A stretch of 64,000 nucleotides of DNA from Eubacteriales bacterium (GCA_045535815.1 JAZSMJ010000034.1:648-64647), one strand, 5' to 3'. Positions 19,834 through 47,559 are shown, counted from the stretch's first letter. The notes: generated from the sequence alone by a model not told the origin. Translations and numbers: made by a program.

Positions 19834-19862
19834 TTGCAAAATGCATAATAATATTGTATAAT
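19834..19862 (+). promoter_or_regulatory. SigA-type promoter TTGCAA-17-TATAAT with TG extension
   Basis: TTGCAA 19834-19839, TG-T-ATAAT 19855-19862, upstream of giant protein A. Hairpin TGCAAC/GTTGCA lies just upstream, within 19803-19818. Confidence 0.6.
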
Positions 19863-19937
19863 AAACTTAACATTTCAAGTTGACGTTTTTAATCAGACTT
19901 TTGATCAATTATATTAAATCAAGGAGAAGAAAGAACC

Positions 19938-22900
19938 ATGAAGAATTCAAAGAAATTATGGCTCGTGCTGTTTCTGACAGTATCAATGCTCGTGGTATCC
20001 GGTTGCTTGTTTGCAGTTTCTGCGGCGGACGGATACGAGATCACGGGATGGTATGGAACCGATAATATCGGCTTGGAAACAACGGTTGAGCTTGTTCACG
20101 ACGGTACGGTTGTTAAAACGACAACAATTCCGGCTTTTGAGGACAGCTACGGAGAGGGCGCAGTAAACTTTTGGGTTACAGACGTCCAGCCGGGTACATA
20201 CGATTTAGTTTTCAAAAAGGCAGGATGCCTTTCGTATACGGTAACGGGAATAACCGTTATCAATTCGGACGTTAATCTCAGTAACAGCTCGCTTACAAGT
20301 GGAGCGAACAAGCCTAATCTTATATCCGGTGATATAGATGAAAACGGCTTTGTTGACGGTATTGACGTTTCATATTTCATTTTCGATATGGGTAAGTCTG
20401 ATGCAGAGGCTATATATGCAACCTCCGATTTGAATGGAGACGGATACAGAGACGGTATAGACGTTGCAAAGCTTGCATTCAATATGCTTTCTCAGCCCGG
20501 ATCAGTTGAGTATGACAATCCGCATATAAACGTGGTCAAAAACATATTTAACTTCAATGAACTGAACCCGAACGGAAGCTTTTGGTGGGGCTTGGTTCAT
20601 CCTACGCTTTCCGAGGACGGATATAAGGGCAATTGCTATACAACGAACGTAGGCAACGATATTATCTGCGGTAACCTCGGTGCAGAGGGTACGTCCGTTG
20701 ATTTTTCCGCTCTTGCAGAGGACGGTAACTACCTTTCCTTCTACGTATATGTAGAATCCGATATAACCACAACGCTCAGAACTGACGTTGTAAGTATCAG
20801 AGATGTTTATTCTGATCCTTGTTCGCTGATATGGAATACAACCGGTCTTACCAAGGGCTGGAACCATATTATTCTTGATATTGACGACGTGATCAATCAC
20901 GGAGCAAACTTTGATATAGAGAACGTGCAGTTCGTTCATTTCTGGCTTGGTACCGATGAGACAAATTGGTGCGTTGACGAGCTCAGCATAATTGAGATCG
21001 AAGATTATAATCAGGATAGTGGATCAGGCGAAGCTCCCGGTGACGAACATGAGCATGACGCTGCAACTAACCTCACTATTACAGATGCAGTAGGTCCTAT
21101 TACATCTGGCGCTGATATCGTTATGTTTGCAGGTGCTATAGGTCCGTATGATCTTACAGATTATCAGGCAAATGGCGGAGTTCACATTGAACTTTACGTA
21201 TCCGATCCTGCTTTGATAGCAAACGGTCAGCTTGAGCTTTCATCCAACAGTGCTCCCGATACTAAGGAAATCAACTGGAAGTTTGACGGTAAGCAGTTCC
21301 AGCTTAAAGAGGGTTGGAACGTACTTGACCTCAAGTTCAGTGAAATTCCTGAAGTAGAGCAGTGGGAAGCAAGCTTTGGCGGTATGGATTGGTCCGCAGT
21401 AAACTATTGCAGAATATACCTCAATCCTACAAACACAGAAGACAAAACGGTAGAACTTAAGAACGTTTACATCTTCAAGGGTGAAGCAGGTACAGAACCC
21501 GATGCCCCTGAAGATCCCGAAGATCCTCCCGTAGGCGAAGGAACAAAATTTGTTCTTACCGCTTGCGATTCCATAGATGGCCTGTGGGGATCTCCTCTTG
21601 CATTGGATACTCAAAACAAGGTAGAGGGTACAGCTTCCGTTTCAGCTTCAAGTAATAGTGATAACGTTGCCATAATTTGCGAAGCGTTTGGCTCCGGTTA
21701 CGATCTCAGTGAATATCAAGACGATATGTTCGTACACTTAAGCGTTTATATTGACGATATATCAAAGATGATAACCTCGCCCGGACACATTCAGTTTGAA
21801 TTATACGGCGGAGATCCTGTCGATAACGGAAACGGTCAACAAGTAGCTCCTTGCTTCAGATGGAATATAGGCAGTATGCTTGATACCGGATGGAACGAGA
21901 TCGAGCTTAGCTTCTCCTCTGCTGTAATAGACGATGTTGGGGGAAGAGCTACTCCTTCTATAGCTACAATAAAATCACACAGACTGTTTGGATATTCAAC
22001 AGCTCCGACAACGATAGCTATAGATGATATTTACGTAACGACTTCTGCAACATTAGCAAAGAAGTATGCAAACAATCTCTTCAAGCTTGACAATATGTCA
22101 GCATACAGTGATTCCTCTTACTACAGCAAGGCGGCTTGGACGGTTTCAGGAGCGAGTGCTTCCTTCAGCTCAGAGGGCGCAAAGCTTCACGACACTGGCG
22201 CTGTAACGCTCAACGTTGCATCAGGTCAGACAGCTGTACTTTGTAAGACCTTCAGCAATACCGACCTTAGCAAGTATGCTGATGACGGATATCTCTATTT
22301 CTGGCTCTACGTTGATAAGGCTTCAAAGATCACCGGCGGTCAGCTTGAGCTGACAAGCTCAACTCAGCCCGACTGCTACGAGACGTCCTGGAACGTTACA
22401 TCGCTTAACCTCAAGGACGGTTGGAATGAGATCAAGCTCAGCCTTAAGGACTCCAATTTTGCAAGCAATGATGCGATATGGAGTATAATAAACTACGTAA
22501 GATTCTATTTCTCTGTTAATGCTCAGACTACCATCAAGGTAGAGGGTCTGTACTTCGGTACGGCAGATGATATGGAAACTGTACAGGCTAATAAGGTTGA
22601 GACATCAAGAGACGTTTTGGTTCTCGAAAACTGCGATACGCTTGACAATTGGGCAGTTGTAGGAACTTCGAGCTGTATATATGACACCAGCAGTGCCAAT
22701 GCAGAACACGAGGGCACAGGATATATAACCACAAGCCTTGATTCCGCAGGCGACGTTGTTCTTGCTAAAACCTATCAGGCAACAGATCATTGGATGAACG
22801 CCGTGAACGCTACGGTAAATACCTGGAGAATAGATCTTCGTGAATACAAGGACAGCAAGCTTAACGTTTCAATGTATATAAGCGATCCCTCCGTTGTAAT

Positions 22901-25208
22901 TGGCGGACAGATAGAGCTTACCTCAAGCGGACGTTCTGATGCTAACGAGATAAGCTGGGGCGAGCTTGGCGTTAATATTCCGCTTAAAGCAGGCTGGAAC
23001 CACCTTGAGCTTGATTTTGCCGATGCAAATATAATCGGCAATCCCGATTACTTTGAGATAAACTATTTCAGAGCATACCTTAATTGCTCCGGTGCCATTA
23101 CAATGGGACTTGACAATATTTATTTCGGAGATACTCAGGAGCTTTCATCTGTTATATTTACCGACGGCACCAACACACTCAGCAGAGCTTACTATAAAGA
23201 TGGAAGCCGCATCAGACTCAGCACCTCGTTTTACAATTACGATAAGGAATTCAACGGTTGGTCAGACGGAACGAATTTGTATAAACAGGGTGAATACGTG
23301 ACGGTAAACGGCGACGTTACGTATACGGCTGTGACAAACGACAGACCGGTTGACAACAACGTATACTATAGCTATGATATGGATGACGGAGGATATGATT
23401 CTCCGAATAGGGTAAAGCTTAACGGAGCAGTGAAGGGCGCATGCTCTGCAACAGGCTACAACGTTGCTTGGATAAAATCAGACGTGTTTGGCCGTGTTCT
23501 CGACCTCTCGACAAACGGATCATCTGTGCAGCCCTTTGAAACCGTAAGCGTTCCGATGAGCAGTGACGTTGCGGTTGAAACATGGTTTAACGCTCCCAAG
23601 AGGACTGCTACGAAGGGCAGCACCCTTCTTGACAGATACATTATGCAGTCCGACGGAATCGGAATTTGGCTCGATCCTGACGATTCATCCGTAAACGTCA
23701 GAGTCGGAAGCACGACTGTAACTGCAACCAAGACAGATATAGGCTTTGATGTTATTGATGAAAAATGGCACTATATCTGCGTTAAATACGATGCAAGCGA
23801 TGCAAGAGTTACCGTTTATATTGACGGCAATTCGGTAAAGAGCGCTACGGTTTCTGTATCCGGAGAGCTCGGCGCTGTAGTTATAGGTGCATATTCACAT
23901 AATTCTGCAGCTAACTGCAACTTTGACGGACACCTTGCAAGATTTGCAATAACAAACGGAAACGAATTCTACGGATACTCTTCCTCGCTTATAACCGAGG
24001 CCGAATATGATGCATCGACTTCGATCAAGCTTGAAAAGGGTATAGTAATAGATCGCCGTCAGTATTGGAACTTCAATCCCTTTACTTACGAGGGTGCAAC
24101 CATAGCTCCCAACGATATTCAGAATATAAAGAGCCTCGGCTTCGATCACGTTAAGCTTCTTCTTACGCCCAACTGGCTGATAGACGATAACGGCGAGCTT
24201 ATATACGAGAATATGACTTACATTGCTCCCATTCTTGACGAGGTTCAGAGACAGGGCTTCAAGTGTATCCTTTGCCTGCACCCCGAGGAGGGCTTCAAGG
24301 GTACGTATATGAGCGAGGCTGCTTTTTATAACGGCAAATTCTCTGATCTTCTCAACTTCTATCAGGATTTCACAGCCTACGTAGTTGAAAATTGGGGAAC
24401 AGACTTTATAGCAATTCAGCTTATGACTGAGCCCAATGCAAACAGCAGCAGCGTTTCTTGGGATTGGATAGCGGACAGACATTGGGTAGCGGCGCGTAAT
24501 GCATCTGAAGATATTATGCTTATCACAAGCTCCGATGATTTCGGTAACTTTGAGCATATCAAGCATATGTCTCCCGTATTCGACTACAACCTCGTATACT
24601 CCTTCACGACCTACGAGCCCTATACCGTTGGATTCAACAACTATAATCAGTACGACTTCTGGCCTTACGTAAAAGGCGTGCTCTATCCCGTTCCCGAAGG
24701 ACTTACTTCCTCTCAGATCAGCGCATTGATCGAAGAGAATATTACGATGGTTCCCAATGACCTTAAAGAATCGGCTAGATATACACTCAGAAGATACTAT
24801 ACCGGTGAAGCTGATATCTGGCGTATCAACTCTTACGATCAGGTATACAACCTCGATTGGCATATGGAAAGATGCGCGGCGCTTGATGCTTGGAATCAGG
24901 CAAACGGCGGCAACATTCATCTGATGGCAGTTGAGTTCGGATGCTCCGATACTCAGTACAACCAGAAGATATTCCACGCCGTTGCGGGAAGCGGTATATC
25001 CGATGAGACGCGTCTGACGCTTATAGATCATCAGACAAGCTCCTTTGAGGCTTACGGTATCGGTTGGTCGTACTGGTCATACAACGAGTACTTCCATATG
25101 CTTGATACCACCAAGCATCTCAATCTTGGTAACGTCTGCCTTACACCTATACAGTTTGCAGATGCAGTTGACCAGAAGCTTATAGACATACTTCTTAACA
25201 GAAACTGA
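19938..25208 (+). CDS. Giant secreted multimodular protein A (1756 aa): dockerin + 5 recurrent modules + InlB-type B-repeat + LamG + C-terminal divergent GH5/clan GH-A-like domain
   Basis: Signal peptide. Small beta-sandwich (VELVHDGTVVK...GTYDLVFKKAGCLSYTV). Two EF-hand-like dockerin repeats. Repeated modules share ...DLSxY..DGYLYFWLYVD...GGQLELTSS...W...GWNEI.L...INYxRFY. FNGWSDG B-repeat. LamG (DEKWHYICVKYDA..VTVYIDG...FDGHLARFAI). The barrel has HPEE, LMTEPN, FTTYEPY, AVEFGC and GIGWSYWSYNE. Confidence 0.85.
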   Translation: MKNSKKLWLVLFLTVSMLVVSGCLFAVSAADGYEITGWYGTDNIGLETTVELVHDGTVVKTTTIPAFEDSYGEGAVNFWVTDVQPGTYDLVFKKAGCLSYTVTGITVINSDVNLSNSSLTSGANKPNLISGDIDENGFVDGIDVSYFIFDMGKSDAEAIYATSDLNGDGYRDGIDVAKLAFNMLSQPGSVEYDNPHINVVKNIFNFNELNPNGSFWWGLVHPTLSEDGYKGNCYTTNVGNDIICGNLGAEGTSVDFSALAEDGNYLSFYVYVESDITTTLRTDVVSIRDVYSDPCSLIWNTTGLTKGWNHIILDIDDVINHGANFDIENVQFVHFWLGTDETNWCVDELSIIEIEDYNQDSGSGEAPGDEHEHDAATNLTITDAVGPITSGADIVMFAGAIGPYDLTDYQANGGVHIELYVSDPALIANGQLELSSNSAPDTKEINWKFDGKQFQLKEGWNVLDLKFSEIPEVEQWEASFGGMDWSAVNYCRIYLNPTNTEDKTVELKNVYIFKGEAGTEPDAPEDPEDPPVGEGTKFVLTACDSIDGLWGSPLALDTQNKVEGTASVSASSNSDNVAIICEAFGSGYDLSEYQDDMFVHLSVYIDDISKMITSPGHIQFELYGGDPVDNGNGQQVAPCFRWNIGSMLDTGWNEIELSFSSAVIDDVGGRATPSIATIKSHRLFGYSTAPTTIAIDDIYVTTSATLAKKYANNLFKLDNMSAYSDSSYYSKAAWTVSGASASFSSEGAKLHDTGAVTLNVASGQTAVLCKTFSNTDLSKYADDGYLYFWLYVDKASKITGGQLELTSSTQPDCYETSWNVTSLNLKDGWNEIKLSLKDSNFASNDAIWSIINYVRFYFSVNAQTTIKVEGLYFGTADDMETVQANKVETSRDVLVLENCDTLDNWAVVGTSSCIYDTSSANAEHEGTGYITTSLDSAGDVVLAKTYQATDHWMNAVNATVNTWRIDLREYKDSKLNVSMYISDPSVVIGGQIELTSSGRSDANEISWGELGVNIPLKAGWNHLELDFADANIIGNPDYFEINYFRAYLNCSGAITMGLDNIYFGDTQELSSVIFTDGTNTLSRAYYKDGSRIRLSTSFYNYDKEFNGWSDGTNLYKQGEYVTVNGDVTYTAVTNDRPVDNNVYYSYDMDDGGYDSPNRVKLNGAVKGACSATGYNVAWIKSDVFGRVLDLSTNGSSVQPFETVSVPMSSDVAVETWFNAPKRTATKGSTLLDRYIMQSDGIGIWLDPDDSSVNVRVGSTTVTATKTDIGFDVIDEKWHYICVKYDASDARVTVYIDGNSVKSATVSVSGELGAVVIGAYSHNSAANCNFDGHLARFAITNGNEFYGYSSSLITEAEYDASTSIKLEKGIVIDRRQYWNFNPFTYEGATIAPNDIQNIKSLGFDHVKLLLTPNWLIDDNGELIYENMTYIAPILDEVQRQGFKCILCLHPEEGFKGTYMSEAAFYNGKFSDLLNFYQDFTAYVVENWGTDFIAIQLMTEPNANSSSVSWDWIADRHWVAARNASEDIMLITSSDDFGNFEHIKHMSPVFDYNLVYSFTTYEPYTVGFNNYNQYDFWPYVKGVLYPVPEGLTSSQISALIEENITMVPNDLKESARYTLRRYYTGEADIWRINSYDQVYNLDWHMERCAALDAWNQANGGNIHLMAVEFGCSDTQYNQKIFHAVAGSGISDETRLTLIDHQTSSFEAYGIGWSYWSYNEYFHMLDTTKHLNLGNVCLTPIQFADAVDQKLIDILLNRN
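20325..20492 (+). other. Dockerin module of protein A
   Basis: SGDIDENGFVDGIDVSYF and SDLNGDGYRDGIDVAKLAF both fit the D-x-[DN]-x-[DN]-G-x-x-D-x-x-D calcium-loop pattern. Confidence 0.75.
23970..25205 (+). other. GH5/clan GH-A-like (beta/alpha)8 domain of protein A
   Basis: Order of motifs matches GH5: GFDHVKL, CLHPEE, QLMTEPN (putative acid/base Glu codon 24429-24431), YSFTTYEPY, LMAVEFGC (putative nucleophile Glu codon 24933-24935), GWSYWSY. Confidence 0.65.
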
Positions 25209-25216
25209 TAATGATG

Positions 25217-25248
25217 CAGCTCCGTTCCATTGGAACGGAGCTGTTTTG
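25217..25248 (+). terminator. Intrinsic terminator after gene A
   Basis: CAGCTCCGTTCC/GGAACGGAGCTG stem, followed by TTTTG. Confidence 0.85.
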
Positions 25249-25326: not shown

Positions 25327-28300
25327 ATGAAAGCATCATCTGCAATAAAGCTGTTGTTTATTTTATGGATAGTATCGGCGATTATTATACTGACGGGATG
25401 CGAGGAAAGCGTTGCTCCCGAGCATGAAGAAGCTTTGAGCGAAGAGTCAGAGAGCGCTTCTGATCAGAATGAGGAGCCTGGTCTTATTACCGTAAGCTAT
25501 GATGCCGAGCTTGACGGTGCAGAAATACCTTCGGTCAGCGTAAGGGCAGGCGAGAAGATATTGCTTGCTGAGTGCGGCTATCAAAACGACGGCAGGATCT
25601 TTGCCGGCTGGAGCGACGGCGTGACGGTATATCCCGAGGGCAGTGAATTCACTGCACCCGAGGGCGATATAACGCTTCACGCAGTGTGGAAGGTGTATGC
25701 AGCTGCAATCAAAATATACGGCTTTGATGAAATGAACGCAAACGGAAGCTCGTGGTGGGGAACCGGGGCCGTGAACGTTTCGGTAGGCGGAGCATACGGC
25801 AGTTATTTCTCGACAGAGGCCGGTCAGAGCGTTATATGCGGAAATTTTGTTGCTGAAGGTCAGCCTCTTGATCTTTCAAGCCTTGAAGATGAAGAGAATA
25901 CTCTTTCTTTTTACGTATACATAGAAAATGATATAAATGCGGATATTACGGTGGATCTTGCAAGCGTAAGGGATACGCCGGACGCCGATCATTCTGCAAA
26001 ATGGATAGCTTCGGGACTCACGCAGGGCTGGAACCGGGTAGCGCTTAAGCTTAAGGATGCCATAGTCGGCGAAAGCTTCGATATATCAAAGGCGCAGTTC
26101 GTGCATTTTGAGATAAGCGACACCTCAAGCGTTTGGGGTGTAGACGAGCTTGCTGTATTTGGTTACGTTGAAGAAAAGCTACACGTAAACAATCTCTTTA
26201 TGCTTGACAGCATGTCGGGTAAGTACGGCACATCGATGTATAGCTCTGCTGCTTGGGGCTCGGACGGTGCAGAGGTCAGCTTCACAAACATAGGAGAAAG
26301 GCTTCACGGCTCAGGAACGGTAACGTTAAACGTAAGGCGTGGAGATACCGCTTGGCTTTATAAGCAGTTCAGCAATACCGATATCAGCAAGTACGCAGAC
26401 GACGGATATCTCTATTTCTGGATGTACGTTGATAACGCATCTAATCTTACGGGCGGTCAGATCGAGATAACAAGCTCAACTCAGCCCGACTGCTACGATA
26501 CCTCGTGGGACGTTTCCGCTCTCGGTATTAGAAACGGCTGGAATGAAATGAAGCTGAAGCTTGTCGGAGAAGCGGCAAATGAGGATGCGATCCTCAGCAT
26601 AATAAATTACGTAAGGTTTGTTTTCACTGCAAGTGAAGATACGGCTATAAAGATAGAGGGACTTTACTTCGGTACGGCAGACGATATCGCAAGTGTTACT
26701 ACCGTGCGCAAGGCAACCTCAAGAGAGGTCAGGGTTATCGAAAACTGCGACACCTCAGATAACTGGAGGGGTGACAAAAACATAACCTTCGTATCTGCCG
26801 ACAGCGAGGATATAGAGGGCAAGGGATATATTGCGATAAGCCGTGACGGTGCAGGCGACGTTGCTTTTTTCAAGACCTATCAGGGTATGAAGCATTGGAT
26901 GAACGCCGGGGGCGCAATGGTCAATACCTGGAGAATAGATCTTCGGGATTATATGGACAGCAAGCTAACGCTTTCACTTTACGTTTCCGATCCGGGTGTT
27001 ATCGCAGGAGGACAGATAGAATTCACCTCAAGCGAAGGCTCGGACGTTGACGAGATAAGCTGGGGAGAGCTTGGTGTGGACATTCCGCTTGAAAAGGGGT
27101 GGAACACGGTAGAGCTTGATTTTGCAGATGCAAATATGATCGGCACCCCCAATCTGTCTGAGATAAACTATTTCAGAGTATATCTTAACTGCACCGGTCC
27201 TGTAACAGTGGGACTTGACAACATATACCTCGGTGATAAGCAGGAGCTTTCCGATATCACCTTCACTGCAACCGAGATACTCGGGGAGGATCCTCAGACA
27301 ATAACGCAGACCTTCAAGTATAAGGACGGCGCAAGAATAAGGATGCTTGACATTCCCGATATTGAAACCAAGGAAATGACAAACTTCCTCGGCTGGTCGG
27401 ACGGAAGTAAGCTTTATATGCCGGGTGACTACGTAACGGTAAAGGGCGATGCGGTTTACACCGCACAGTATATAGAAAAGCCTTATGCAGAGGGCGTATA
27501 CTACGCATATGACTTATCGGACGGGGGCATATCGCAAGAAGGTATACAGACATCCTCGGCAGGTATTTCGGAGATCGAGTCTTCGGTTGCGGGTCTGCCC
27601 AATGCGATAGCTGAAAGTGCAGTGTGGATGAGCTCCAATACTTTCGGGCGCACACTTGATTTCTCGATAGCAGGAGCATACGTGGCTGCAAACGGTGTGA
27701 ATGTCAGCTTATCGTCCGACGTTTTGATCGAATGCTTTTTCAATACCCCGGACAGAGATCATTTAGAATCAAGATACATTATGGGCACCGGTGTTTTTGA
27801 TATATATTTAGGCGCCGATGCAAGAGTAAATATCAAGCTTGGAAATGCAAAGATAAGCTTTTCTCGAGATGCTATAGGTCATGATATAATTGACGAAAAG
27901 TGGCATCATCTGAAGGTCGTGTATAAAGCCCAAGAAGCTACCGTTACCGTGTTCGTTGACGGAAAATCCGTCGGTAGCAAAAAACTGCATTCAGACGCAG
28001 CCGATCTATCCTTTGATTCTGTTGTGATCGGAGCTCGGACGAAGGAGCCCAATCTAAATGACAGCTTTGACGGACGGTTAGCAAGATTTGCTATCACAAG
28101 CGGTGATGAATACTACGGCTACGAAAGCGTTGAGATAGCCGACGGTGAATACGACGTAGTAAGAGCTGTAGATCTCAAAAAAGGTATAGTAATGGACCGC
28201 CGTCAGTATTGGAACTATAATCCCTACGTTTACGAGGGCCAGAGCATAGCTCCGAATGATATCCAGAATATCAAGGATCTCGGATTTGACCACGTTAAGA

Positions 28301-29400
28301 TACTTCTTACGCCCAACTGGCTGATAGACGATAACGGCGAGCTTATATATGAGAATATGTCTTATATCGCTCCGCTTCTTGACGAGGTCAAGCGCCAGGG
28401 CTTTAAGTGTATTCTTTGTTTGCATCCAGAGGAGGGCTTCAAGGGTACGTATATGAGCACTAATGCTCTAAAGGACGGCACTTTTGGCGAGCTTCTCAAC
28501 TTCTATCAGGATATCTCCGCATACATAGTTGAGAATTGGGGCACCGACTTTATCGCACTTCAGCTTATGACCGAGCCTAACTCCAATTCCGGCACTGTAC
28601 CGTGGGACTGGATAGCTGACAGACAGTGGGGCGCTGCGAGAAACGCCGCTCCCGATCTTATGCTCATTACAAGCTCTGACGACTACGGCAACTTCGAAAG
28701 ATTAAAGGTTATGTCACCTGTATTCGACTATAACCTCGTTTATTCTTTCACCACATACGAGCCTTAGACGGTAGGTTTTAATAACTACACAAGAAGCTCC
28801 TTCTGGCCTTATCTCAAGGGCGTTATCTATCCCGTTCCTGAGGAAATGCCTCAGCGTGAGATCGTCAAGCTGATAGAAGAAAATATATCGGATGTTCCAA
28901 GAGACTTGAAGGAAGAGGCAAGGGGAACGCTTCGAAACTATTACCTTGGCAACATGGACAGCTGGAGAAGAAACTATTACGATTCACGTTATAATCTCGA
29001 TTGGCATATGCAAAGATGCGCTTCGATTCAGGAGTGGAATCAGGCAAACGGCGGAAATATTTATCTGATGGCGGTCGAGTTCGGATGCTCTGATACCAAA
29101 TATAATCAGGAAGTCCGCGAAAGAAAGGTGCGTGTTGAGGACTTCGGCATCAGCGACGAAACCAGACTTACCCTTATCGACCATCAGACGCAGTCGTTCG
29201 ATAAATACGGTATCGGCTGGTCGTATTGGTCGTATAACGAATATTTCCATATACTTGACACCTCCGTTCATGCATGGGGATACGACGGTGTGAAGGATAG
29301 GGATAAGAACACCTACGAAGGACTTTCGGGAGTGAGCATGACACCTGAGCAGTTCGCTAAATACGTAGACCGTGACCTTATAGACATTCTTATAAATTAA
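25327..29400 (+). pseudogene. Giant lipoprotein B, close paralog of A, interrupted by one in-frame TAG (28765-28767)
   Basis: ATG 25327 behind GGAGG. Lipobox IILTGC. ORFs 25270..28767 and 28846..29400 are in the same frame and separated only by TAG, where paralog A has Tyr (YEPY versus YEP*). The sequence downstream stays conserved (YPVPEE, LMAVEFGC, GIGWSYWSYNE). Confidence 0.7.
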
Positions 29401-29408: not shown

Positions 29409-29441
29409 AGCGGTCCTGCGAAAAAAGCAGGACCGCTTTTG
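29409..29441 (+). terminator. Intrinsic terminator after gene B
   Basis: AGCGGTCCTGC-GAAAAAA-GCAGGACCGCT, followed by TTTT. Confidence 0.85.
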
Positions 29442-29535
29442 TATGCAAAATGAGAAAATGAAAGTGCTTTAACAAATAAAGTAGATAAAACACAAAAAAT
29501 ATACAAAATGGTAAAAAATGCAAAGCAAAGTACTA

Positions 29536-35498: not shown

Positions 35499-35527
35499 TT
35501 TACACTTTTTTTTACATATGATATAAT
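35499..35527 (+). promoter_or_regulatory. SigA-type promoter TTTACA-17-TATAAT
   Basis: TTTACA 35499-35504, TATAAT 35522-35527. Confidence 0.55.
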
Positions 35528-35562
35528 TTATTAAACTTTATCTTTTTTGTTTGGAGTATATT

Positions 35563-39900: not shown

Positions 39901-40521
39901 CACGGATATATCTCACTCGACGTCTACTGTGAGGACGCATCTCAGGTGACGGGTATACTTCTTGACTTCGGAAGCAACCGAGGACTTCTTGAGTCAGTTT
40001 CGTGGTATACCAATCAGCCCCTCAAGGACGGTTGGAATACTGTCAAGATAAAGATGTCCGAAAATCCCACGTGGAACGGAGCTGACCCTGCAGAGATAAG
40101 CTATCTCAGATTCGTAGGATATACTCCCTCAAGCACCACGATGGCCATCGACAATCTCTACTTTGAGCTCGATTCCGAGCACGCAAAGGGATACAACTAC
40201 TGGACTTTGGGTCTTGACGGCGAGGGCTACCTCACGTTTGAATCTGATAAGATCGAGAGCGAGGTCCGCTCGGATAAGGCTATAACCGATACCGAATGGC
40301 ATCACGTAATGATAAGCTATGACGGCGATCGCTTTACCTATTATATAGACGGCGCTGAAGCGGGCGGATTTGATGCGGATACATCATTCGTAACTCCCAG
40401 CTCTGCCGACCTTATGATCGGAACGGATGGGGACGGAAATGCACCCTACTCGGGTCTCCTTGCAAACGTCCGTATATACAATGCGGCAAAGACACCGGCA
40501 GACGTAACTCCTGCTGAATAA
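36913..40521 (+). CDS. Giant lipoprotein D (1202 aa): split LamG + central GH5/clan GH-A-like domain + second split LamG
   Basis: ATG 36913, lipobox VFIGC. LamG halves (FTISSWLKAP ... DGKWHHVAVTLNNGSFTYYVDG ... FDGSMAQLKLY) surround a recurrent module. The barrel has GPHPVHE, IMSEPAGG (Glu codon 38587-38589), FSTYEPY and VHVSEVGT (Glu codon 39109-39111). Confidence 0.85.
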   Translation: MKKIILLFAALLCFSFVFIGCDDATVDPVDGTESNAEETADNVEQEKGEEVVTNANLLESWDLSDGGRTGNVSSSIGKTSGTTRWGTWLRTETFGFTLDFSTEGSYFKAENVSLEEMSDSFTISSWLKAPPREDNTRVIVSKGTYDSSAPVEYSDFKVLHSCNVKDGWKRLNNQVADYEDESCSDGHCLELTGDQNAPLIFALQFKNQNFSSYDTDDAYIRFKLYVDDASKLISGELELGSQNASDSYETAWSLDSSLFKDGWNEIVLPLSGAHKSGDGGCDLGRINFTRLYMYVTGPATIRLDEIAFCRVAESDKALDFALYLEGGSGNLGFMAPGLSGLENTDVSLIDGKWHHVAVTLNNGSFTYYVDGEAVKTLAVTGSLTNDYSDIYAGSYPDATGGFDGSMAQLKLYSGVASAKNMASAVTVAESDNTFDATTVELMKGIWIEPSNMQDLKNVKDMGFGHVRHGFDPDRRGEIYINEDGSLNLEAMQTVEKWINNCVRAGLPIIIGPHPVHEWKEKWITDLEKFELVCEWYGDLAAYIAERWTPQQVALTIMSEPAGGNPSVSWTWVSDRVYTAMRNAAPDHTILMGGDASGNIEKMKAMSPVTDDNVKYSFSTYEPYTIGFGTASSGMAGQVTFWNYLGDVPYPVPEGLTDEEIEAIVEDVTSIEPANFKAQAQDVVRKYLKGISDAGDHYVNNYGGVYNKDWHIRRAESVKAWQDKYGGVNVHVSEVGTIDAVQSIQYFQAVEGSGASMETHYNHLRDLVTTFIDYGFGYDYCAYNNPELTVFDTRLRSGQYAYGNGLSSDLALSWYDYDKLDILQVTPVREYHPTADLSNALLAIKLDDEEGAETAASELLLGVTAEYGKIKTVADDKFGRAAQLTGVAGENIISSNASFDMPDGMAISAWIKADNAASTSKQAIVTMAENMQKDETGAVGKLMISDCETNSGWWGVSDIGTMERQQSGGEFAIVTEAKQTVIFCNVFHSLDITSFLDHGYISLDVYCEDASQVTGILLDFGSNRGLLESVSWYTNQPLKDGWNTVKIKMSENPTWNGADPAEISYLRFVGYTPSSTTMAIDNLYFELDSEHAKGYNYWTLGLDGEGYLTFESDKIESEVRSDKAITDTEWHHVMISYDGDRFTYYIDGAEAGGFDADTSFVTPSSADLMIGTDGDGNAPYSGLLANVRIYNAAKTPADVTPAE
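38245..39400 (+). other. GH5/clan GH-A-like domain of protein D (most divergent copy)
   Basis: MGFGHVRHGFDP, GPHPVHEW, TIMSEPAG, YSFSTYEPY, HVSEVG. Confidence 0.55.
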
Positions 40522-40569: not shown

Positions 40570-40809
40570 CAATACGGCTGAAAATACGACTTTTTTTGTA
40601 CGTAAATGTTAACAAAGTGCAAATTTTGTTCACATTCAAGACGCTGCTTTTCCTTAATATTACAGTTATATTACAAAAGCGCCTAAGGTGTTGAAAAAAA
40701 AGACGGATTGTAATATGATATAAGCACAGGTACTCTCCCGAAATTTCTCAAGTCGGGGTAAAGAGAAACCTGTAAAAATTATAATTTTTTTCAAAAAGGA
40801 GAAAAAACC

Positions 40810-43800
40810 ATGAGAAATTTGAGAAGATTTCTGGCAATGGCTCTGACCATCATGATGGTAGCTGGATGCTTCAGCATGTTCAGCGTAAACGCATTTGAAG
40901 ACGTTTATGACTTTGAAGAAGCAATCAACACCCTTAATGATCTCGGAGTTATCAAAGGCTATGATGAGACATCGTTCGGTCCGGACGACGACGTTCTCAG
41001 ATGGCACATGGCGCTTCTTGTTTCCAAGCTCGTAACCGGTAAGGTTGAAACAGCTACATGGGAAACAGCGTCCAACTATTCCAACTTTACAGACGTAAAG
41101 GCTGAGAACTACTACGGTAGTATCTCTTATGCCTCCAACCACGCTATCATCATCGGTACCAGCGCTACAACATTTGAGCCCGAAGGACAGATCATGTTCC
41201 AGGATGCTCTTACAATGGTAATCCGTGCACTCGGATTCGGTGGCGAAGAAATGGATGCAGGCTATCCTTACACCTACATCGCAAAGGCTAACAAGCTCGG
41301 CCTCACAGCAGGTCTCGAGTACATTGAAAGCTACGACGAAAACCTCACAAGAGGCGAAACAGCACAGCTTCTTTACAACGCACTTTACACAGTAAATGCT
41401 GACGATACAACATTTGCTGAAAGCGCATTCGGTATGGTAGCAGCTGACGAGTACCTCGTAGTTATCACAGCTACAAACAACGCTAACATGGTAAGCGATG
41501 CTCTCGTTGAAAAGACAGATTACGTTGCATTCAACGAAATCATGGTTGACGGCACACTCAACGAAAACGTAACATACTTCCTTCCCAAGGCTGAATTCGG
41601 TATCGAAGGCGACGCAGACCTCTACGTTGGCGCTTCCTACGTTGTTTACACAACAGACGGATTCAAGTCCATCGCTTCCTACGAAGCAATCGAAGGTGTT
41701 GCAGTTGAAGTAGCAGGCAACGCAGAAAAGAACACAGCTCTCGTTAAGATCGACGACACAGTTTACCAGACAGTTGAAAGCTTCACAGCTCTTAACGCTT
41801 CTCAGGTAAACAAGGGTAACTATCCTGAAATCATTATGTACGCTAAGAACGTTGGTTATCAGACAGCAGCTGGCAACGGCATGTACGTTGCTGACGCAGC
41901 AGGTAACCTCCTCAACGCTAACGGTCAGGTAGTTGCATACTACATGCCCAACCTCGTTGGTTATGTTTCCCCCTACGTTGTATACGATGCAGTTACAGGC
42001 GTATACAGAGCAGCTACAGCTGAAGACCTCAGAAGCGTTGCAGTTGTTGCTCCCGAAACAGTAGGCGCATACAAGGTAGTTGCAGATACTCTTACAGAGA
42101 TCGCTAACGTTGGCGCTATCTACGATGCAGTTGCATACGACGATAACGGCGACGGCACATATGACAGAGCATTCTTCGTAAACTACAGATACGGTCAGTA
42201 CACACTTGACGCTGACGGACACGCTGTAATCGGCGGTCTCGACACAGGCGTTAAGGCTGAAGCAGTTAAGGTAGTAGACGCAGAAGGTAACGCTACAACT
42301 CTTACAGTTGGCGGTTACTACATCTACGCTTACAACGCACAGTCCAAGACTATCACAGTTAAGGAAGAACTCGCAGTTTACACCGGTTACGTTTCCGGTA
42401 TGAACTCTCTCCAGAGCAAAGTTACAATCGGCGGCACAGTTTACAACTACGGCATAGCTAACCTTCCCGGTGCTTCTGCTGCAGAAGTAGGCGTTGGTCC
42501 CGAACTCGTTGGTAAGAACGTAAACTACGTTCTCGTTGACGGTGTTGTTGTTGACGTTCTCGCTCTCAACAACCTCGGCTACATCGTATTCGACAGCGTT
42601 ATCGGCGTAACCTCCACAGGTCTTCCGATGGCTCTCGTTTACAACAACAGCAATATCCTTTCTGTAATCGTTGTTTCTACAATCGATACATATTCTTACT
42701 ATCAGTTCGCTTACAACAGCGATTCTCTCACATCTAACGTAACTAAGCTCGAAACAACAGCTAAGGGATCTATCTTCACAGCTGAAATCGACGCTCTCGG
42801 TTACTACCACCTCATGACAGTTGCAGGTGTTCAGACAGCTACATCTGACTTCGAGGTTGACTTCATCAACGGTGTTACAAACAACGAACCTGCTATCGGC
42901 GGTCAGTTCAAGACAACAGCTGATACAATCATCCTTGTTTACAACACAACAACAAAGACATTCACAGCTCGCAAGGGTATTCCTGGCGACGGTGCAGTTC
43001 TTACAGTAGCACTTGGTTCTCAGTACTTCGTTAAGACTGCCGGCAACGCTATTACATACATCTACGTATATGGCGATGCTACATTCACAGGCACAACTCA
43101 GACTCCTGCATGGGGCACAACAACAACCAATACAACAGTTGTTTACGTTGATCCCGCATATGCAGAACCCACAATCGTTTCCAACAGCCTCTCTTCTGTA
43201 ATCGGCGTTGAAGGCATTACACTTCAGGGTTACACCTACAAGTACAATGTAATCGACATGGCTACAGGTAAGGCTATAGACGTTTACACAGCATCTTACA
43301 ATGCACAGCTCATCGCAGGCGCATACTACACAGTAACTAACGGTTACGTTGACGGCCTTGCAGCTGACGATGCAGTTAAGACAGCAGAGATCATCTCTGT
43401 ATCTCCCTTCTATTCCGAAACATCTGTTGCAACATACGACAGACAGGAAGTTGTTATCCTTGCTATTGACGATATCACAGGCGTTGTTGCAAGAGGTGCT
43501 GACGGCCAGCCCGTTAACTATTTCGGAAATGCAGCATACGACGTAGCAGTTAACAAGTTCGCTATCTACTATGACGTTGCAGGCACAACAAAGGTTTACT
43601 TCACAGCTGACGGTCCTATAGGTGTTCCGGTTGTAACAGTTGAAACCGGCGTTTTTGGACCCAACCATAGATCTGACGTTTGCATGCAGGATAGCGATGA
43701 TGTAGTTGGATCATTCGTATCTGCTACAGCAGCTGTTCCTCAGATTATTACCAAGGATCTTAACCTTGACATTTCTGAATTTGCAAACAATCCCAACGCT

Positions 43801-44556
43801 ACACTCCACCTCGAAATTTACATTTCAAAGGTTGCAGCAGTGCAGCTCGGTGGACAGTTTGAGTTCTTTGTTGGCGGTTGCGACAATATGGAATGGGCTC
43901 TTAACTGGGAAGACCTTGCTAAGTATATAAAGAACGACGGCTGGAATACAGTTGAAATTCCTGTAACTGAATTTCAGGTAACAGGTGCTAACGGTGCTCC
44001 CAACTATGCAGCAATTGAAGGAACAAGACTTTATCTTCTTGCTAGCGAAACAATCAAGCTTGGTTTGAAGAGCGTTTACTTCTACGACGACGGATCCGCT
44101 CCTGCAGCTCCCGAACAGCCCGAAGAAGAAGAGCCCGAAGAGCCTGCAAGAGAACAGCTTGCTATCAAGGATGCTGTAGCTTCTGTAACACAGGCAACAG
44201 ACATCGTTCTTGTTGGTGAAGCAATAGGTCCTTATGACGTTACAGACTATCTTACAGAAGGTAAAGTTCATGTTGAGCTTTACGTTAGCGATCCCACAAA
44301 GATCGTTGCTGGTCAGTTAGAGCTTTCTTCTAACGGTGCTCCCGATAGCTGTGAAATCAACTGGAAGTTTGATGGTTCTCTCTTTGAATTGGTAGAAGGT
44401 TGGAACACTATAGAGCTTTCTTTTGCAGAAACATCTGATCAGGATGCTTGGGCTACAGGCGAGGTTGACTATAGCGCTATTAATTATTGCCGTTTCTATC
44501 TTAATCCCACCGGTGGTGAGGTAACAGTAGAAGCAAGAAACATTTACATTTATTAA
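40810..44556 (+). CDS. SLH-domain S-layer protein 1 (1248 aa) with two C-terminal copies of the recurrent module
   Basis: Signal peptide ending VNA/FE. Three SLH repeats (FEDVYDFEEAINTLNDLGVIKGYDETSFGPDDDVLRWHMALLVSKL; FTDVKAENYYGSISYASNHAIIIG...; LTRGETAQLLYNAL). Long T/V/A/G/Y/N-rich body. Strongly biased codons. The C-terminal module is highly similar to module 2 of protein A. Confidence 0.9.
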   Translation: MRNLRRFLAMALTIMMVAGCFSMFSVNAFEDVYDFEEAINTLNDLGVIKGYDETSFGPDDDVLRWHMALLVSKLVTGKVETATWETASNYSNFTDVKAENYYGSISYASNHAIIIGTSATTFEPEGQIMFQDALTMVIRALGFGGEEMDAGYPYTYIAKANKLGLTAGLEYIESYDENLTRGETAQLLYNALYTVNADDTTFAESAFGMVAADEYLVVITATNNANMVSDALVEKTDYVAFNEIMVDGTLNENVTYFLPKAEFGIEGDADLYVGASYVVYTTDGFKSIASYEAIEGVAVEVAGNAEKNTALVKIDDTVYQTVESFTALNASQVNKGNYPEIIMYAKNVGYQTAAGNGMYVADAAGNLLNANGQVVAYYMPNLVGYVSPYVVYDAVTGVYRAATAEDLRSVAVVAPETVGAYKVVADTLTEIANVGAIYDAVAYDDNGDGTYDRAFFVNYRYGQYTLDADGHAVIGGLDTGVKAEAVKVVDAEGNATTLTVGGYYIYAYNAQSKTITVKEELAVYTGYVSGMNSLQSKVTIGGTVYNYGIANLPGASAAEVGVGPELVGKNVNYVLVDGVVVDVLALNNLGYIVFDSVIGVTSTGLPMALVYNNSNILSVIVVSTIDTYSYYQFAYNSDSLTSNVTKLETTAKGSIFTAEIDALGYYHLMTVAGVQTATSDFEVDFINGVTNNEPAIGGQFKTTADTIILVYNTTTKTFTARKGIPGDGAVLTVALGSQYFVKTAGNAITYIYVYGDATFTGTTQTPAWGTTTTNTTVVYVDPAYAEPTIVSNSLSSVIGVEGITLQGYTYKYNVIDMATGKAIDVYTASYNAQLIAGAYYTVTNGYVDGLAADDAVKTAEIISVSPFYSETSVATYDRQEVVILAIDDITGVVARGADGQPVNYFGNAAYDVAVNKFAIYYDVAGTTKVYFTADGPIGVPVVTVETGVFGPNHRSDVCMQDSDDVVGSFVSATAAVPQIITKDLNLDISEFANNPNATLHLEIYISKVAAVQLGGQFEFFVGGCDNMEWALNWEDLAKYIKNDGWNTVEIPVTEFQVTGANGAPNYAAIEGTRLYLLASETIKLGLKSVYFYDDGSAPAAPEQPEEEEPEEPAREQLAIKDAVASVTQATDIVLVGEAIGPYDVTDYLTEGKVHVELYVSDPTKIVAGQLELSSNGAPDSCEINWKFDGSLFELVEGWNTIELSFAETSDQDAWATGEVDYSAINYCRFYLNPTGGEVTVEARNIYIY

Positions 44557-44724
44557 TCCAGAAAACTTCTCAAAACTTTAAATTATAATTTTGGCGGTGC
44601 GCGGAGGATCGTACTCCGCGCCTGCCGAAGATAAATTGAGAAAACTTTGACAGTTTAAGATAAGACCAATTCATTCGTTTTATACGCAAATCAACTTTTT
44701 TAATTTTAATAAGGAGATTAAGCC

Positions 44725-47559
44725 ATGAGAAATTTGAAAAGATTTCTTGCGATGACATTGACAATGCTCATGATCGTTAGCTGCTTCTCTATGTTCAGCG
44801 TAAACGCATTTGACGACGTTTATGATTTTGAAGAAGCTATCGACACACTTGCAGGCCTCAATGTTATCAAGGGTTATGATGATACAACATTCGGACCCGA
44901 TGACGATGTTACAAGATGGCAGATGGCATTGCTTATATCTAAGCTCACCACAGGCCTTACAGATACATCTGTTTGGTATTCCGAATCCAACACAACAAAG
45001 TTTGCTGACGTAGTTGCTGACAACTACTTCGGTTCTATCAACTTTGCTTCCGGCAACGGCATCATCAAAGGTACATCCGACACAACGTTTGCTCCCGAAG
45101 CAGGCATTATGTTCCAGGATGCTCTTACAATGGTCGTTCGTGCTCTCGGTTACGGCAGCGAAGAGATGGACAAGGGTTATCCCTGGATGTTCATCGAAAA
45201 GGCTGATGACCTCGGTCTTATGAACGGTCTCGAATACATCGACGACACAGAAGCTACTCTTACAAGAGCAGAAACAGCTCAGCTCCTTTACAACGCTCTT
45301 TACGCTGTAAACGCTGACGACGAAACAATTGCAACAGCTGTATTTGATCTTTATGATCCTGAAGCAGTTGTAGTAGTTCTCACAGCTACAAACAGATACA
45401 ACATGAATGCGGCTGAAGGCGTTCTCAAGAAGGACTACGTTGCATTCAACCTCGTAAATGCTAAGACTGGTATCATTGATACAGGCCTTACATACTACGT
45501 TGACAAGGCTGAGTTCGGTATCGAAGGCGATGCTGACCTCTGCATTGGCAACACATATGAAGTTACATCTTTCGACGGATTTGCAACTCTTGAAAGCGCT
45601 ACACTTATTGACGCCGGCAAGACAGATGCAGTTATCGAAGGCAATGCTAACGCTAACACAACACTCATCACTATTGACGGTGTTGTTTATGAAGTAGTTG
45701 AGTCTTACACAAGCCTCAACGCTACAGGCGAATACATGGGCAACTATCCTGAAATCGTTCTCTACAACAAGGATGGCTCTTACGTAATCGACGGAACAGG
45801 CGCTTACCAGACAGACGCATACGGTAACCTTCTTGACAAAAACGGTCAGATCGCTCTTTACTATATGCCTTGGCTCACAAGCTATGCTAATCCTTACGTT
45901 GTTATGAGAGATGACGGAACAGTTATCGCTGCTAACCCTGATCTCACACAGTACGACCTCGCTAAGATCGATGACGGCGTAGTTGGCGGCTTCTCCAAGA
46001 TCACTAATACAAAGACTGAGATCGCTGACATCAACGGCGTTTACGATGCAAAGGTATTTGACGTAAACGGCGACGGTTACTATGATTACGGTTACACTGT
46101 AAACTACAAGTACGGTGCATACGGCGTTAATGCTGTAAGTGGAAGCCTCATAGTTGGTACTACCGATACAGGCAGAAAGCCTGACCAGATCAAGTACGTT
46201 GACGCTGAAGGCAACACAATCGCTGCTATCGGCGCTGGTTACTACCTCTACTCCTACAACGCACAGGCAGGTGTTCTTACAATCAAGGAACAGCTCTCTG
46301 TTTACTCCGGATATCTCTCCGGTCTCAACACAATCGCTGATCAGCTCACTCTCGGTGGCACAGTTTACAGCTACGGCTTCGCTAAGCTTCCGGGCGCTGA
46401 AGCAGCTAACGTTGAAGCTGACATCACAGCAGCTCTCATCGGTAAGAACATCAACTACGTAATGTATGACGGCGTTATCGTTGACATACTTCCTGTTCAG
46501 GGCAACGGCTACTTCGTTCTCGACAGCGTTATCGGTGTTACATCCTCCGGTCTTCCCACCGTTCTCGGATACAACCAGAATAACATTGCTACAGTTGTTG
46601 TAGTTGCTACTCTCAACACATACACAGGTTACATTTACAACTTCGAAACAGATAAGCTCAACGGCGTTCCCGCACTCTTCCAGAACGCTGAAAAGGGTAC
46701 TCTCTACACAGCTCAGGTTGATACACTTGGTTACTACCACCTCACAGAAGCTGACGCAGCTCTCCTGGTTGCTACTGCAGGCGAAACAGTTAACTTCAAG
46801 AACGGTATCTCCAACACAGGTTCTGTTCTCGGAACATTCTCTACAAACGATAACACAGTTATCCTTGCATACGATCCCTCTACTGGTAAGTTCGAATCCA
46901 GAAAGGGTCAGCCTGCTACAGGTGCTACTCTCGTAGTTCCTCAGGGTGCTGAATACGTTGTTGTTGGTGCAGCTCCTGCTTCCTTCATCTACATCAAGGG
47001 CGCAGTTTCCTTCGAAGGTTACTCCGTTGTTGATCCTTGGGCTACACCCGCTAACACAACTCTCGTTTACATCGATCCCGCTAACTCCAAGGCTACAATA
47101 GTTGACAATAGCCTCTCTTCCGTAATCGGCGTTGAAGGCATGCTCCTCCAGGGTTACACATACAAGTACTCTGCAGTTGCTGACCTTGTAAACGGTAAGG
47201 CTACAGACGTTTACTCTGTATCTTACAACGCACAGGTTAAGGCCGGCTACGTTTACTCTGTAGTTAACGGTTACATTGACGAAGAGATCGGTACTCTTGA
47301 AGACGTTCTCACAGCAGTAACACTTGCAAACGTAACAGCTACAGCTGGTACAGTTGACGGTGTTGCTATCGACAGAGATAACTTCGTAGTTATGACTGTT
47401 GACGCTAACGGTAACGTTGTAAGAGCTGAAAACTCCAAGGGAATTGCTAACGCAGTTGCAGCACCTGCTGCTCCTTACTCCGGCGCAGCATACAAAGTTA
47501 ACGCTACTATCCTTGCTGAACTCGGCATCACAGCTGGTAACGTTTACCTCGTTAAGTAA
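44725..47559 (+). CDS. SLH-domain S-layer protein 2 (944 aa), tandem paralog of the preceding gene without the C-terminal modules
   Basis: Near-identical signal peptide and SLH region (MRNLKRFLAMTLTMLMIV...FDDVYDFEEAIDTLAGLNVIKGYDDTTFGPDDDVTRWQMALLISKL). Shares conserved blocks with SLP1 (KAEFGIEGDADL, VLDSVIGVTSSGLP, SLSSVIGVEGMLLQGYTYKY). Confidence 0.9.
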   Translation: MRNLKRFLAMTLTMLMIVSCFSMFSVNAFDDVYDFEEAIDTLAGLNVIKGYDDTTFGPDDDVTRWQMALLISKLTTGLTDTSVWYSESNTTKFADVVADNYFGSINFASGNGIIKGTSDTTFAPEAGIMFQDALTMVVRALGYGSEEMDKGYPWMFIEKADDLGLMNGLEYIDDTEATLTRAETAQLLYNALYAVNADDETIATAVFDLYDPEAVVVVLTATNRYNMNAAEGVLKKDYVAFNLVNAKTGIIDTGLTYYVDKAEFGIEGDADLCIGNTYEVTSFDGFATLESATLIDAGKTDAVIEGNANANTTLITIDGVVYEVVESYTSLNATGEYMGNYPEIVLYNKDGSYVIDGTGAYQTDAYGNLLDKNGQIALYYMPWLTSYANPYVVMRDDGTVIAANPDLTQYDLAKIDDGVVGGFSKITNTKTEIADINGVYDAKVFDVNGDGYYDYGYTVNYKYGAYGVNAVSGSLIVGTTDTGRKPDQIKYVDAEGNTIAAIGAGYYLYSYNAQAGVLTIKEQLSVYSGYLSGLNTIADQLTLGGTVYSYGFAKLPGAEAANVEADITAALIGKNINYVMYDGVIVDILPVQGNGYFVLDSVIGVTSSGLPTVLGYNQNNIATVVVVATLNTYTGYIYNFETDKLNGVPALFQNAEKGTLYTAQVDTLGYYHLTEADAALLVATAGETVNFKNGISNTGSVLGTFSTNDNTVILAYDPSTGKFESRKGQPATGATLVVPQGAEYVVVGAAPASFIYIKGAVSFEGYSVVDPWATPANTTLVYIDPANSKATIVDNSLSSVIGVEGMLLQGYTYKYSAVADLVNGKATDVYSVSYNAQVKAGYVYSVVNGYIDEEIGTLEDVLTAVTLANVTATAGTVDGVAIDRDNFVVMTVDANGNVVRAENSKGIANAVAAPAAPYSGAAYKVNATILAELGITAGNVYLVK

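Follow-up and report, generated by a model that had tools for sequence, protein, structure and literature searches.

The 64,000-nt stretch of DNA analysed here (the window; Eubacteriales bacterium, GCA_045535815.1 JAZSMJ010000034.1:648-64647, with all positions counted from its first letter) contains a locus of about 28 kb (19834-47559) in which four genes for giant multimodular surface proteins, named A to D, are accompanied by a cassette of an AraC-family regulator, a GH172 enzyme and a Gfo/Idh/MocA oxidoreductase (Gfo) and by two genes, S1 and S2, for S-layer-type proteins with S-layer homology (SLH) domains. The catalytic domain common to A to D is a divergent (beta/alpha)8 barrel of glycoside hydrolase family 5 (GH5), from a branch without a characterised close relative, and we consider it on balance probable that the four proteins constitute a surface-tethered, polysaccharide-degrading array which would serve nutrient acquisition within a mosaic of three units. 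The first-pass annotation of this DNA had viewed the 28 kb as one dedicated novel apparatus, a view that is not borne out, as the catalytic domain belongs to the known family GH5 and the cassette and SLH units are distributed separately.

The family assignment is carried by domain profiles, models and structural comparison. The Pfam family PF00150 (GH5/Cellulase) is matched above threshold by C (5.6e-11) and D (1.4e-17), and A and B are assigned to GH5 through the 30-40% identity of the catalytic domains between the A/B and C/D pairs. With an AlphaFold2 (AF2) model of the C barrel domain (pLDDT 87.7) as Foldseek query, the top 50 matches were all GH5 structures, the best being CelC, CcsZ and TmCel5A with a target-normalised TM score of about 0.8, and a profile built from the clade recovered CelC from the Protein Data Bank (PDB) at 3.9e-24. 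The motifs MTEP/MSEP and VEFG/SEVG align with Glu140 and the nucleophile region of CelC, and both the acid/base and the nucleophile Glu are kept in all 119 aligned strong matches. A divergent TIM-barrel catalytic domain common to the four proteins had been recognized before, which stands, and its family can now be named, as Pfam, AF2 and Foldseek agree on GH5.

The active site nevertheless departs from the family in clade-typical ways. Where the family has N-E-P, the first three paralogs, A to C, have L-M-T-E-P and D has M-S-E-P, and among 134 strong matches, 10 of which are gapped at this position, T-E occurs in 84 and N-E in 36 of the remaining 124; the N-E matches predominate among the weaker ones (<150 bits), but include P0025, one of the top-ranked matches. 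In addition, the strand-2 Arg is a Lys in A to C (GFDHVK for GFDHVR). In clan GH-A, the Asn before the acid/base Glu hydrogen-bonds O2 of the -1 sugar, and its clade-wide change is therefore a hint, though no proof, of a non-standard sugar at -1. The clade comprises 64 cluster representatives at E<=1e-30 in an exhaustive search of 1.84 billion representatives, its barrel is always fused to an N-terminal LamG domain and, with 416 aa versus about 310-340 in the nearest known GH5 enzymes, carries some 80-100 extra residues. Compared with the sister genome GCA_052843795.1, which harbours the same array at 75-87% DNA identity, dN/dS is 0.10 for C and 0.09-0.19 for B, and values around 0.1 indicate purifying selection on both. 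A literature search for combinations of GH5, GH172 and GH2 or of Laminin_G_3 and GH5 returned nothing on this clade.

Modular architecture and anchoring of A to D

The four genes lie on the plus strand with the following parts, CBM denoting carbohydrate-binding module, HMM hidden Markov model and ORF open reading frame.

19938-25208, +, A, intact ORF of 1756 aa, with a signal peptide and then a small beta-sandwich, a dockerin-like segment (20328-20474), the five CBM-like modules, an Flg_new-like repeat, LamG and GH5 in this order
20550-20993, 21060-21476, 21558-22043, 22083-22565 and 22617-23135, +, CBM-like modules of A (HMM)
23535-23957, +, LamG of A (Pfam, 5.9e-13)
23985-25205, +, GH5 barrel of A (paralogy to C and D; PDB match to CelC at 2e-06)
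25327-29400, +, B, A-like paralog broken by an in-frame TAG at 28765-28767; lipobox LTGC (translation)
25729-26160, 26200-26679 and 26722-27240, +, CBM-like modules of B (HMM)
27673-28095, +, LamG of B
28159-29397, +, GH5 of B
29623-33300, +, C, intact ORF of 1225 aa; lipobox FVGC, Flg_new repeats (3e-09)
30046-30492, +, CBM-like module of C
30955-31242 and 31699-32022, +, LamG of C (Pfam, 1.4e-20), split by a nested module at 31249-31692 (alignment)
32050-33297, +, GH5 of C (Pfam Cellulase, 5.6e-11)
36913-40521, +, D, intact ORF of 1202 aa; lipobox FIGC
37075-37362 and 37870-38172, +, first LamG of D, split by a nested module at 37390-37845
38140-39330, +, GH5 of D (Pfam Cellulase, 1.4e-17)
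39400-39717 and 40183-40506, +, second LamG of D, split by a nested module at 39730-40173

A and B are 54% identical over 1236 aa, and C and D 39% over 779 aa. A is identical to the database protein P0041, and the architecture of D recurs in P0031 at 33% identity. Four tandem paralogs had been described at these coordinates, which is accurate for A, C and D, all intact ORFs, whereas B consists of two. LamG (PF13385) is present in all four proteins, in D as two stretches (Pfam, 6.8e-43); of the B-repeats ascribed to all of them, Flg_new is significant in C, and the motif GWSDG is readable in A and B. None of the six large proteins (A to D, S1 and S2) has a match in NCBIfam.

The recurrent module, which had been left unassigned, does recur, with 14 copies found by an iterated HMM search (five in A, three in B, two each in C, D and S1, none in S2), and its fold can now be named, although it falls in no defined CBM sequence family. 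An AF2 model derived from the 14 copies (pLDDT 85) retrieves with Foldseek the jelly-rolls of CBM30 (E 1.6e-07), CBM11 and CBM16 at a query-normalised TM score of about 0.6 and 12-16% identity, so that the module is modelled as a carbohydrate-binding-type beta-sandwich of the CBM4/11/16/30 fold group; its invariant motif is G-W-N. Pfam holds no family for it, barring a sub-threshold match to SGBP_B_XBD in S1. Each enzyme bears two to five of these CBM11/CBM30-like beta-sandwiches plus Flg_new repeats. Alignment with simple LamG-GH5 homologues reveals that the module, of about 150 aa, is inserted into a loop of LamG once in C and twice in D, while LamG is uninterrupted in A and in the short homologues. 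Searching with a profile of the module retrieved, owing to a word-index limit, only 8 small proteins, and gives no wider module distribution.

That the proteins are secreted, multimodular, carbohydrate-active and differently anchored, as the first-pass annotation had proposed, is supported. The lipoboxes LTGC of B, FVGC of C and FIGC of D are confirmed in the translations, where a signal peptide ending in [LVIF][ASTVI][GAS]C and followed by a polar linker was taken as the pattern (ILTGC-EESV in B, FVGC-DGDT in C and FIGC-DDAT in D, each continued by an acidic low-complexity linker), and B, C and D are thus predicted to be lipid-anchored at the outer face of the membrane. In A, S1 and S2, a lipobox-like Cys lies within the h-region of the signal peptide and is followed by an AxA site, which makes cleavage by signal peptidase I more likely for these three. 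The dockerin reported for A is readable as a duplicated Ca-loop segment with two DxNxDGxxDxxD-type loops, DIDENGFVDGID and DLNGDGYRDGID, but scores 19.2 bits with PF00404 (Dockerin_1), below the Pfam cut-off of 22.9; the reported absence of a cohesin holds for all of the about 40 window ORFs scanned.

The two ORFs of B (25270/25327-28767 and 28846-29400) are separated by a single in-frame TAG at 28765-28767, which sits at the conserved Tyr of TYEPY(T/M)VGF and by which B is presently knocked out. The sister genome encodes an unbroken B of 1361 aa (83.5% identical) with TAC at this position, and the 210 codons downstream of the stop show a dN/dS of 0.09 against it. Both observations indicate that the nonsense change is very recent, polymorphic in the population from which the metagenome-assembled genome (MAG) derives, or a sequencing error. 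Recoding of TAG was considered and rejected, as 2 of 32 confident genes end in TAG, the codon in the sister genome is TAC, and nothing else points to recoding.

Cassette, S-layer genes and genomic context

Comparison with related genomes divides the 28 kb, the conservation of which had been put forward as a check on its unity, into three units, namely the GH5 array, the AraC-GH172-Gfo cassette and the SLH pair. The genes beside the array, and a GH2 gene outside it, are the following.

33355-34269, -, AraC-family regulator (Pfam HTH_18 and AraC_binding), divergent from the GH172 gene
34364-35413, +, GH172 (DUF2961; Pfam PF11175, 1.5e-92)
35551-36831, +, Gfo/Idh/MocA NAD(P) oxidoreductase (Pfam)
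40810-44556, +, S1, SLH protein of 1248 aa (Pfam SLH PF00395, 8.6e-11)
40894-41409, +, three SLH repeats of S1, followed by an S-layer-type core
43627-44091 and 44143-44553, +, C-terminal CBM-like modules of S1
44725-47559, +, S2, SLH protein of 944 aa (Pfam SLH PF00395, 9e-12)
44809-45324, +, three SLH repeats of S2, followed by an S-layer-type core without CBM-like module
6307-9411, +, GH2 (Pfam GH2 domains), outside the array

The cassette separates C from D in the window, while in the sister genome only a terminator and a promoter separate the orthologues of C and D, and the 3.5-kb AraC-GH172-Gfo segment is missing. The GH172 protein, which has no signal peptide, is 57% identical over 345 residues (full length, E=5e-130) to ExoMA1 (PDB 8IC8), a characterised intracellular exo-alpha-D-arabinofuranosidase of Microbacterium arabinogalactanolyticum (PMC10509167), and is probably a cytoplasmic exo-alpha-D-arabinofuranosidase as well; some GH172 enzymes prefer alpha-D-fructofuranosides (PMC10509167). 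Gfo, likewise cytoplasmic, has only weak matches in NCBIfam and the PDB; it carries a Cys-rich insert, CTDGCPYENTCPYNP, at aa ~222-236 (36200-36260). Metagenomes abound in relatives of the GH172 at 60-76% identity. The neighbourhoods of close relatives are heterogeneous, a census showing no conserved context, and in none of their 80 best loci was the GH5 of this clade or the CBM-like module detected. Base composition was also considered as a sign of horizontal acquisition, but GC and GC3 of the cassette are not distinctive. The trio had been proposed as the plausible intracellular branch of the same pathway, with which neither its absence between C and D of the sister genome nor the lack of overlap between GH172 and GH5 loci agrees. 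Rather, AraC, GH172 and Gfo appear to form an independently inherited cassette for the intracellular trimming of alpha-D-arabinofuranosides or related furanosides.

The proposal that each paralog has its own promoter and terminator is upheld for the terminators of A (hairpin at 25216-25244), B (29409-29437), C (33314-33344) and D and for promoter-like sites preceding A, B and C, but the promoter scan found no distinct promoter for D. A strong terminator also follows S2. Directly after the GH172 gene lies a hairpin with a T-run (~35417-35446), and Gfo is preceded by a strong, near-consensus extended -10 promoter (35499-35527), so that GH172 looks monocistronic; a GH172-Gfo-D operon was on the same grounds dismissed for GH172, whereas co-transcription of Gfo and D is possible. 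An exact 13-mer, ACAAAATGGTAAA, occurs some 30 nt ahead of the -35 box at the promoters of both C (29503-29515) and Gfo (35467-35479), and a related element, ACAGAACAAATGGTTAAAT, is found upstream of the C orthologue of the sister genome (L048, ~9870-9890). Although statistically weak (6 matches versus 2.1 expected at <=2 mismatches), the 13-mer may be a shared operator of C and Gfo.

S1 and S2, which are 49% identical, possess a signal peptide and SLH repeats readable within aa 29-200, and their composition (pI 4.1, rich in Ala, Val, Thr and Gly, with 5 Cys in S1) together with the SLH domains suggests S-layer-type proteins. S2 has 148 homologues, of which the named ones are S-layer homology domain-containing proteins of Eubacteriales/Clostridia MAGs. 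The earlier observation that one SLH protein shares the module of the enzymes is confirmed, with S1 1044-1248 being 45% identical to A 307-513. Distant homologues of the S1/S2 family lack these C-terminal modules, and another Eubacteriales MAG has tandem arrays of SLH genes of this family that include no GH5. In our reading, S1 has captured two enzyme-type modules and could therefore present the same glycan at the surface. The order S1-S2-spoIIIA-cinA is conserved in the sister genome, where it lies, with the S1 orthologue, on another contig. Two long stop-free minus-strand ORFs antisense to S1 and S2 (40666-43668, 1000 aa, and 44680-46740, 686 aa) were dismissed as shadow ORFs, the translations being Cys/Val-rich nonsense; the codon bias of the S1 and S2 genes accounts for them.

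A scan of Genome Taxonomy Database (GTDB) genomes with the clade profile gave 42 loci, hosted by gut and rumen Clostridia MAGs, Cohnella rhizosphaerae, Planctomycetota, Hydrogenedentota and Chitinophagaceae; the Bacteroidota members adjoin SusD genes. C. rhizosphaerae DSM 28161, a cultured carrier of the clade, encodes an orthologue of 1691 aa (L014). GH172, an SLH homologue or AraC occurs in none of the 42 (matches to an S1 query being restricted to the CBM-like modules), and the sole Gfo-family match, in L031, is weak at 25%. Tandem LamG-GH5 paralogs and giant arrays of CBM-like modules recur in the Clostridia loci; giant proteins of nearly pure CBM-like repeats (1949 and 1978 aa) stand beside tandem LamG-GH5 genes in L003/L004 (14395-20241) and L008 (11717-17653). 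The neighbours in related loci, which form a catabolic context, are ABC permeases, LacI/RpiR regulators, FucI, FGGY or PfkB kinases, a class II aldolase, xylose-isomerase-like barrels and GDSL esterases. In L011 (8326-9258), L012 (2914-3870) and L013 (8318-9280), a nucleoside-hydrolase-like gene (IU_nuc_hydro) lies directly upstream of LamG-GH5, the product of which may be an unrecognised glycosidase partner. The GH2 of the window belongs to a beta-mannosidase-like branch (PDB 5n6u, 6e-61), has an N-terminal jelly-roll extension of about 190 aa and no signal peptide; orthologues at 47-54% identity stand beside LamG-GH5 in three other Clostridia genomes (Oscillospiraceae, Lachnospiraceae and uncultured Clostridia MAGs), and as these travel with the GH5 clade, the GH2 is the best candidate for an intracellular partner.

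The locus is flanked by pyrC/pyrF on one side and the spoIIIA operon on the other, neighbours which indicate a spore-forming Firmicute as host; database names place the SLH-protein homologues in uncultured Eubacteriales/Clostridia MAGs. Elsewhere in the window, Rfam detects only two tRNAs, close to the right edge (62709-62886) and none inside the locus, an integrase fragment lies at the left edge (156-695), and of two patches of low GC (0.35-0.36; 11800-14990 and 57859-59133), one contains ORFs without Pfam match, with a MazF-type toxin just downstream of it, and the other a NERD-domain protein.

Function of the array and competing explanations

In the reading we favour, a lipid anchor would hold B, C and D at the membrane and A would be secreted, while the long arrays of Flg_new, CBM-like and LamG modules would act as spacers by which the barrel reaches beyond the wall and S-layer. 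LamG and the CBM-like modules would hold an extracellular polysaccharide, in which the barrel would cut equatorial (beta-type) glycosidic bonds by a retaining double displacement. A transporter with its genes at another site would then import the oligosaccharides, and cytoplasmic exo-glycosidases, the GH2 at 6307-9411 probably among them, would complete the breakdown. Several observations weigh against this scheme. The nearest solved GH5 structures are just 11-17% identical, and with Thr or Ser for the Asn before the acid/base Glu and, in A to C, Lys for Arg, neither activity nor specificity can be taken as guaranteed. No carbohydrate transporter was found between 19.8 and 47.6 kb or among the about 40 window ORFs scanned. 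Moreover, the cassette, the difference of which from the sister genome can be an insertion in the window or a deletion in the sister, lies exactly inside the array, and the 13-mer common to the C and Gfo promoters is a further hint of functional coupling. As to the polysaccharide itself, we agree with the first-pass annotation that the substrate cannot be told from the sequence. The annotation had also named, as an outcome that would speak against a novel system, that all domains map onto characterised subfamilies and a described locus of known substrate; what was found are domains of known superfamilies, but neither a characterised subfamily nor such a locus.

Of the alternatives, diversification in sequence of ordinary plant-fibre enzymes, that is, endo-beta-1,4-glucanases, mannanases or lichenases of known specificity, is unlikely. 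In its favour, the nearest structures and profiles are glucanases and mannanases of the GH5_37 and GH5_25 type, beta-mannosidases are the nearest kin of the partner GH2, gut and rumen are the sources of the relatives, and the nearest folds of the module, CBM30, CBM11 and CBM16, bind beta-glucan or mannan. It is at odds with the low identity to any solved GH5, with the small and distinct clade, with the replacement of the O2-binding Asn by Thr across the clade, unexpected for glucanases and mannanases, and with neighbours such as FucI, FGGY and nucleoside-hydrolase-like genes in place of cellobiose or mannobiose pathway genes. The loss of the O2-binding Asn, which suggests an unusual -1 sugar, would suit an integrated system, in which the GH5 enzymes free oligosaccharides from a microbial glycan that contains D-arabinofuranose or another furanose or pentose, GH172 and Gfo process them in the cytoplasm under control of AraC, and S1 binds the glycan at the surface. 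The FucI and FGGY/PfkB kinase genes of related loci, with a ribulose-phosphate 3-epimerase in one, would fit a D-arabinose or 6-deoxyhexose theme, FucI also acting as D-arabinose isomerase. The position of the cassette between the paralogs C and D, the 13-mer at the C and Gfo promoters with its related element at the sister C orthologue, and the similarity of GH172 to ExoMA1 (PMC10509167) speak for such a system too. We nevertheless hold it to be quite unlikely, as the sister genome has no such cassette between its C and D orthologues, GH172 and the GH5 clade or module do not share a single one of the 42 and 80 loci inspected from either side, GH172 has its own terminator, the 13-mer is statistically weak, and known endo-D-arabinanases belong to GH183 and not to GH5 (PMC10509167, PMC10115798).

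A role at the cell's own surface, with the array remodelling envelope glycans such as the SLH-binding secondary cell-wall polymer, an S-layer glycan or a capsule, appears decidedly unlikely. The array does adjoin two S-layer genes in this and the sister genome, S1 contains the module of the enzymes, the locus is without a transporter and lipid anchors would keep the enzymes at the wall; in other genomes, however, the neighbours of the clade are ABC sugar permeases, catabolic isomerases, kinases and LacI/RpiR regulators, with no SLH or wall-biosynthesis genes among them, the clade extends to Planctomycetota and, beside SusD genes, to Bacteroidota, and arrays of SLH paralogs exist without GH5. 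That the proteins are non-catalytic adhesins or decaying pseudogenes which merely bind is very improbable: the nonsense codon in B, the substituted canonical Asn and Arg and the large share of binding modules in each protein would fit, but both catalytic Glu are conserved throughout the clade, the barrel evolves at a dN/dS of about 0.1 even past the stop of B, A, C and D are intact, and so is B in the sister genome. With these explanations set against it, the degradation of an external polysaccharide for nutrient acquisition by a surface-tethered GH5 array remains the reading that we prefer.

Relation to known systems

The window enzymes share with the nearest GH5 members, CelC of C. thermocellum (GH5_37) and TmCel5A, FnCel5A and CcsZ (GH5_25), the (beta/alpha)8 fold, PF00150 and the Glu residues after strands 4 and 7, and the retaining mechanism is presumably common to them; they differ by T/S-E-P in place of N-E-P, the strand-2 Lys in A to C, the LamG fusion and the longer barrel. 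A Gram-positive polysaccharide utilization locus (gpPUL) is minimally defined by a polysaccharide-degrading enzyme, a transcriptional regulator and a linked carbohydrate transport system (Sheridan et al. 2016, PMC5320581). The locus supplies the enzyme and regulator part with four GH5 genes and AraC and resembles a gpPUL in its clustered, secreted, multimodular glycoside hydrolases with CBMs, the AraC-type regulator and cytoplasmic exo-glycosidases, but falls outside the definition for want of a linked carbohydrate transporter, whereas related loci elsewhere do have ABC transporters. It differs further in that its enzymes are mostly paralogs of one family and its regulator is part of the cassette, the conservation of which does not follow that of the array. 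The D-arabinan PULs of M. arabinogalactanolyticum (PMC10509167) and Dysgonomonas gadei (PMC10115798) follow a like logic of extracellular endo- and intracellular exo-enzymes, but the window locus is without a GH183 endo-arabinanase, GH116, isomerase, kinase and ABC transporter, and its surface enzymes are GH5.

Like the SLH-anchored S-layer proteins and SLH-bearing glycosidases of Firmicutes, S1 and S2 combine triple N-terminal SLH domains with an acidic, Cys-poor, Ala/Val/Thr-rich core and occur as tandem paralogs; unlike the glycosidases, they have no catalytic domain, and the modules of S1 are a lineage-specific addition, which might be displayed at the surface in the manner of the surface glycan-binding proteins (SGBPs) of Bacteroidetes. 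A resembles cellulosomal enzymes in its duplicated Ca-binding-loop segment of dockerin type, from which it departs in that the segment is N-terminal instead of C-terminal and sub-threshold, no cohesin occurs among the window ORFs scanned, and the other three paralogs have predicted lipid anchors. The likeness to cellulosomal and SLH-anchored enzyme systems is confined to individual elements.

The array is a new form of a familiar kind of system and not itself a new kind. Should the enzymes be ordinary beta-glucanases or mannanases, the locus would represent one more Firmicute fibre-degrading cluster. The module nested in a loop of LamG is a tidy example of domain insertion, and the clade-wide change of Asn to Thr offers a testable handle on how clan GH-A reads the 2-position of the -1 sugar. 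A more far-reaching interpretation, to which we give a low probability, is that the LamG-GH5 clade with its L-M-T-E-P motif is a new GH5 subfamily of undescribed specificity, the substrate of which could be the backbone or a side chain of a microbial glycan with many furanose, pentose or 6-deoxyhexose residues, D-arabinan for example, that the clade is functionally coupled here to the inserted GH172 cassette, and that the LamG-nested beta-sandwich is a new CBM family. If the clade has a new specificity, it would add a subfamily to GH5 and probably a new family to the CBMs, and would account for a kind of locus that recurs, as yet without annotation, in Clostridia of gut and rumen and in Cohnella, Planctomycetota and Bacteroidota.

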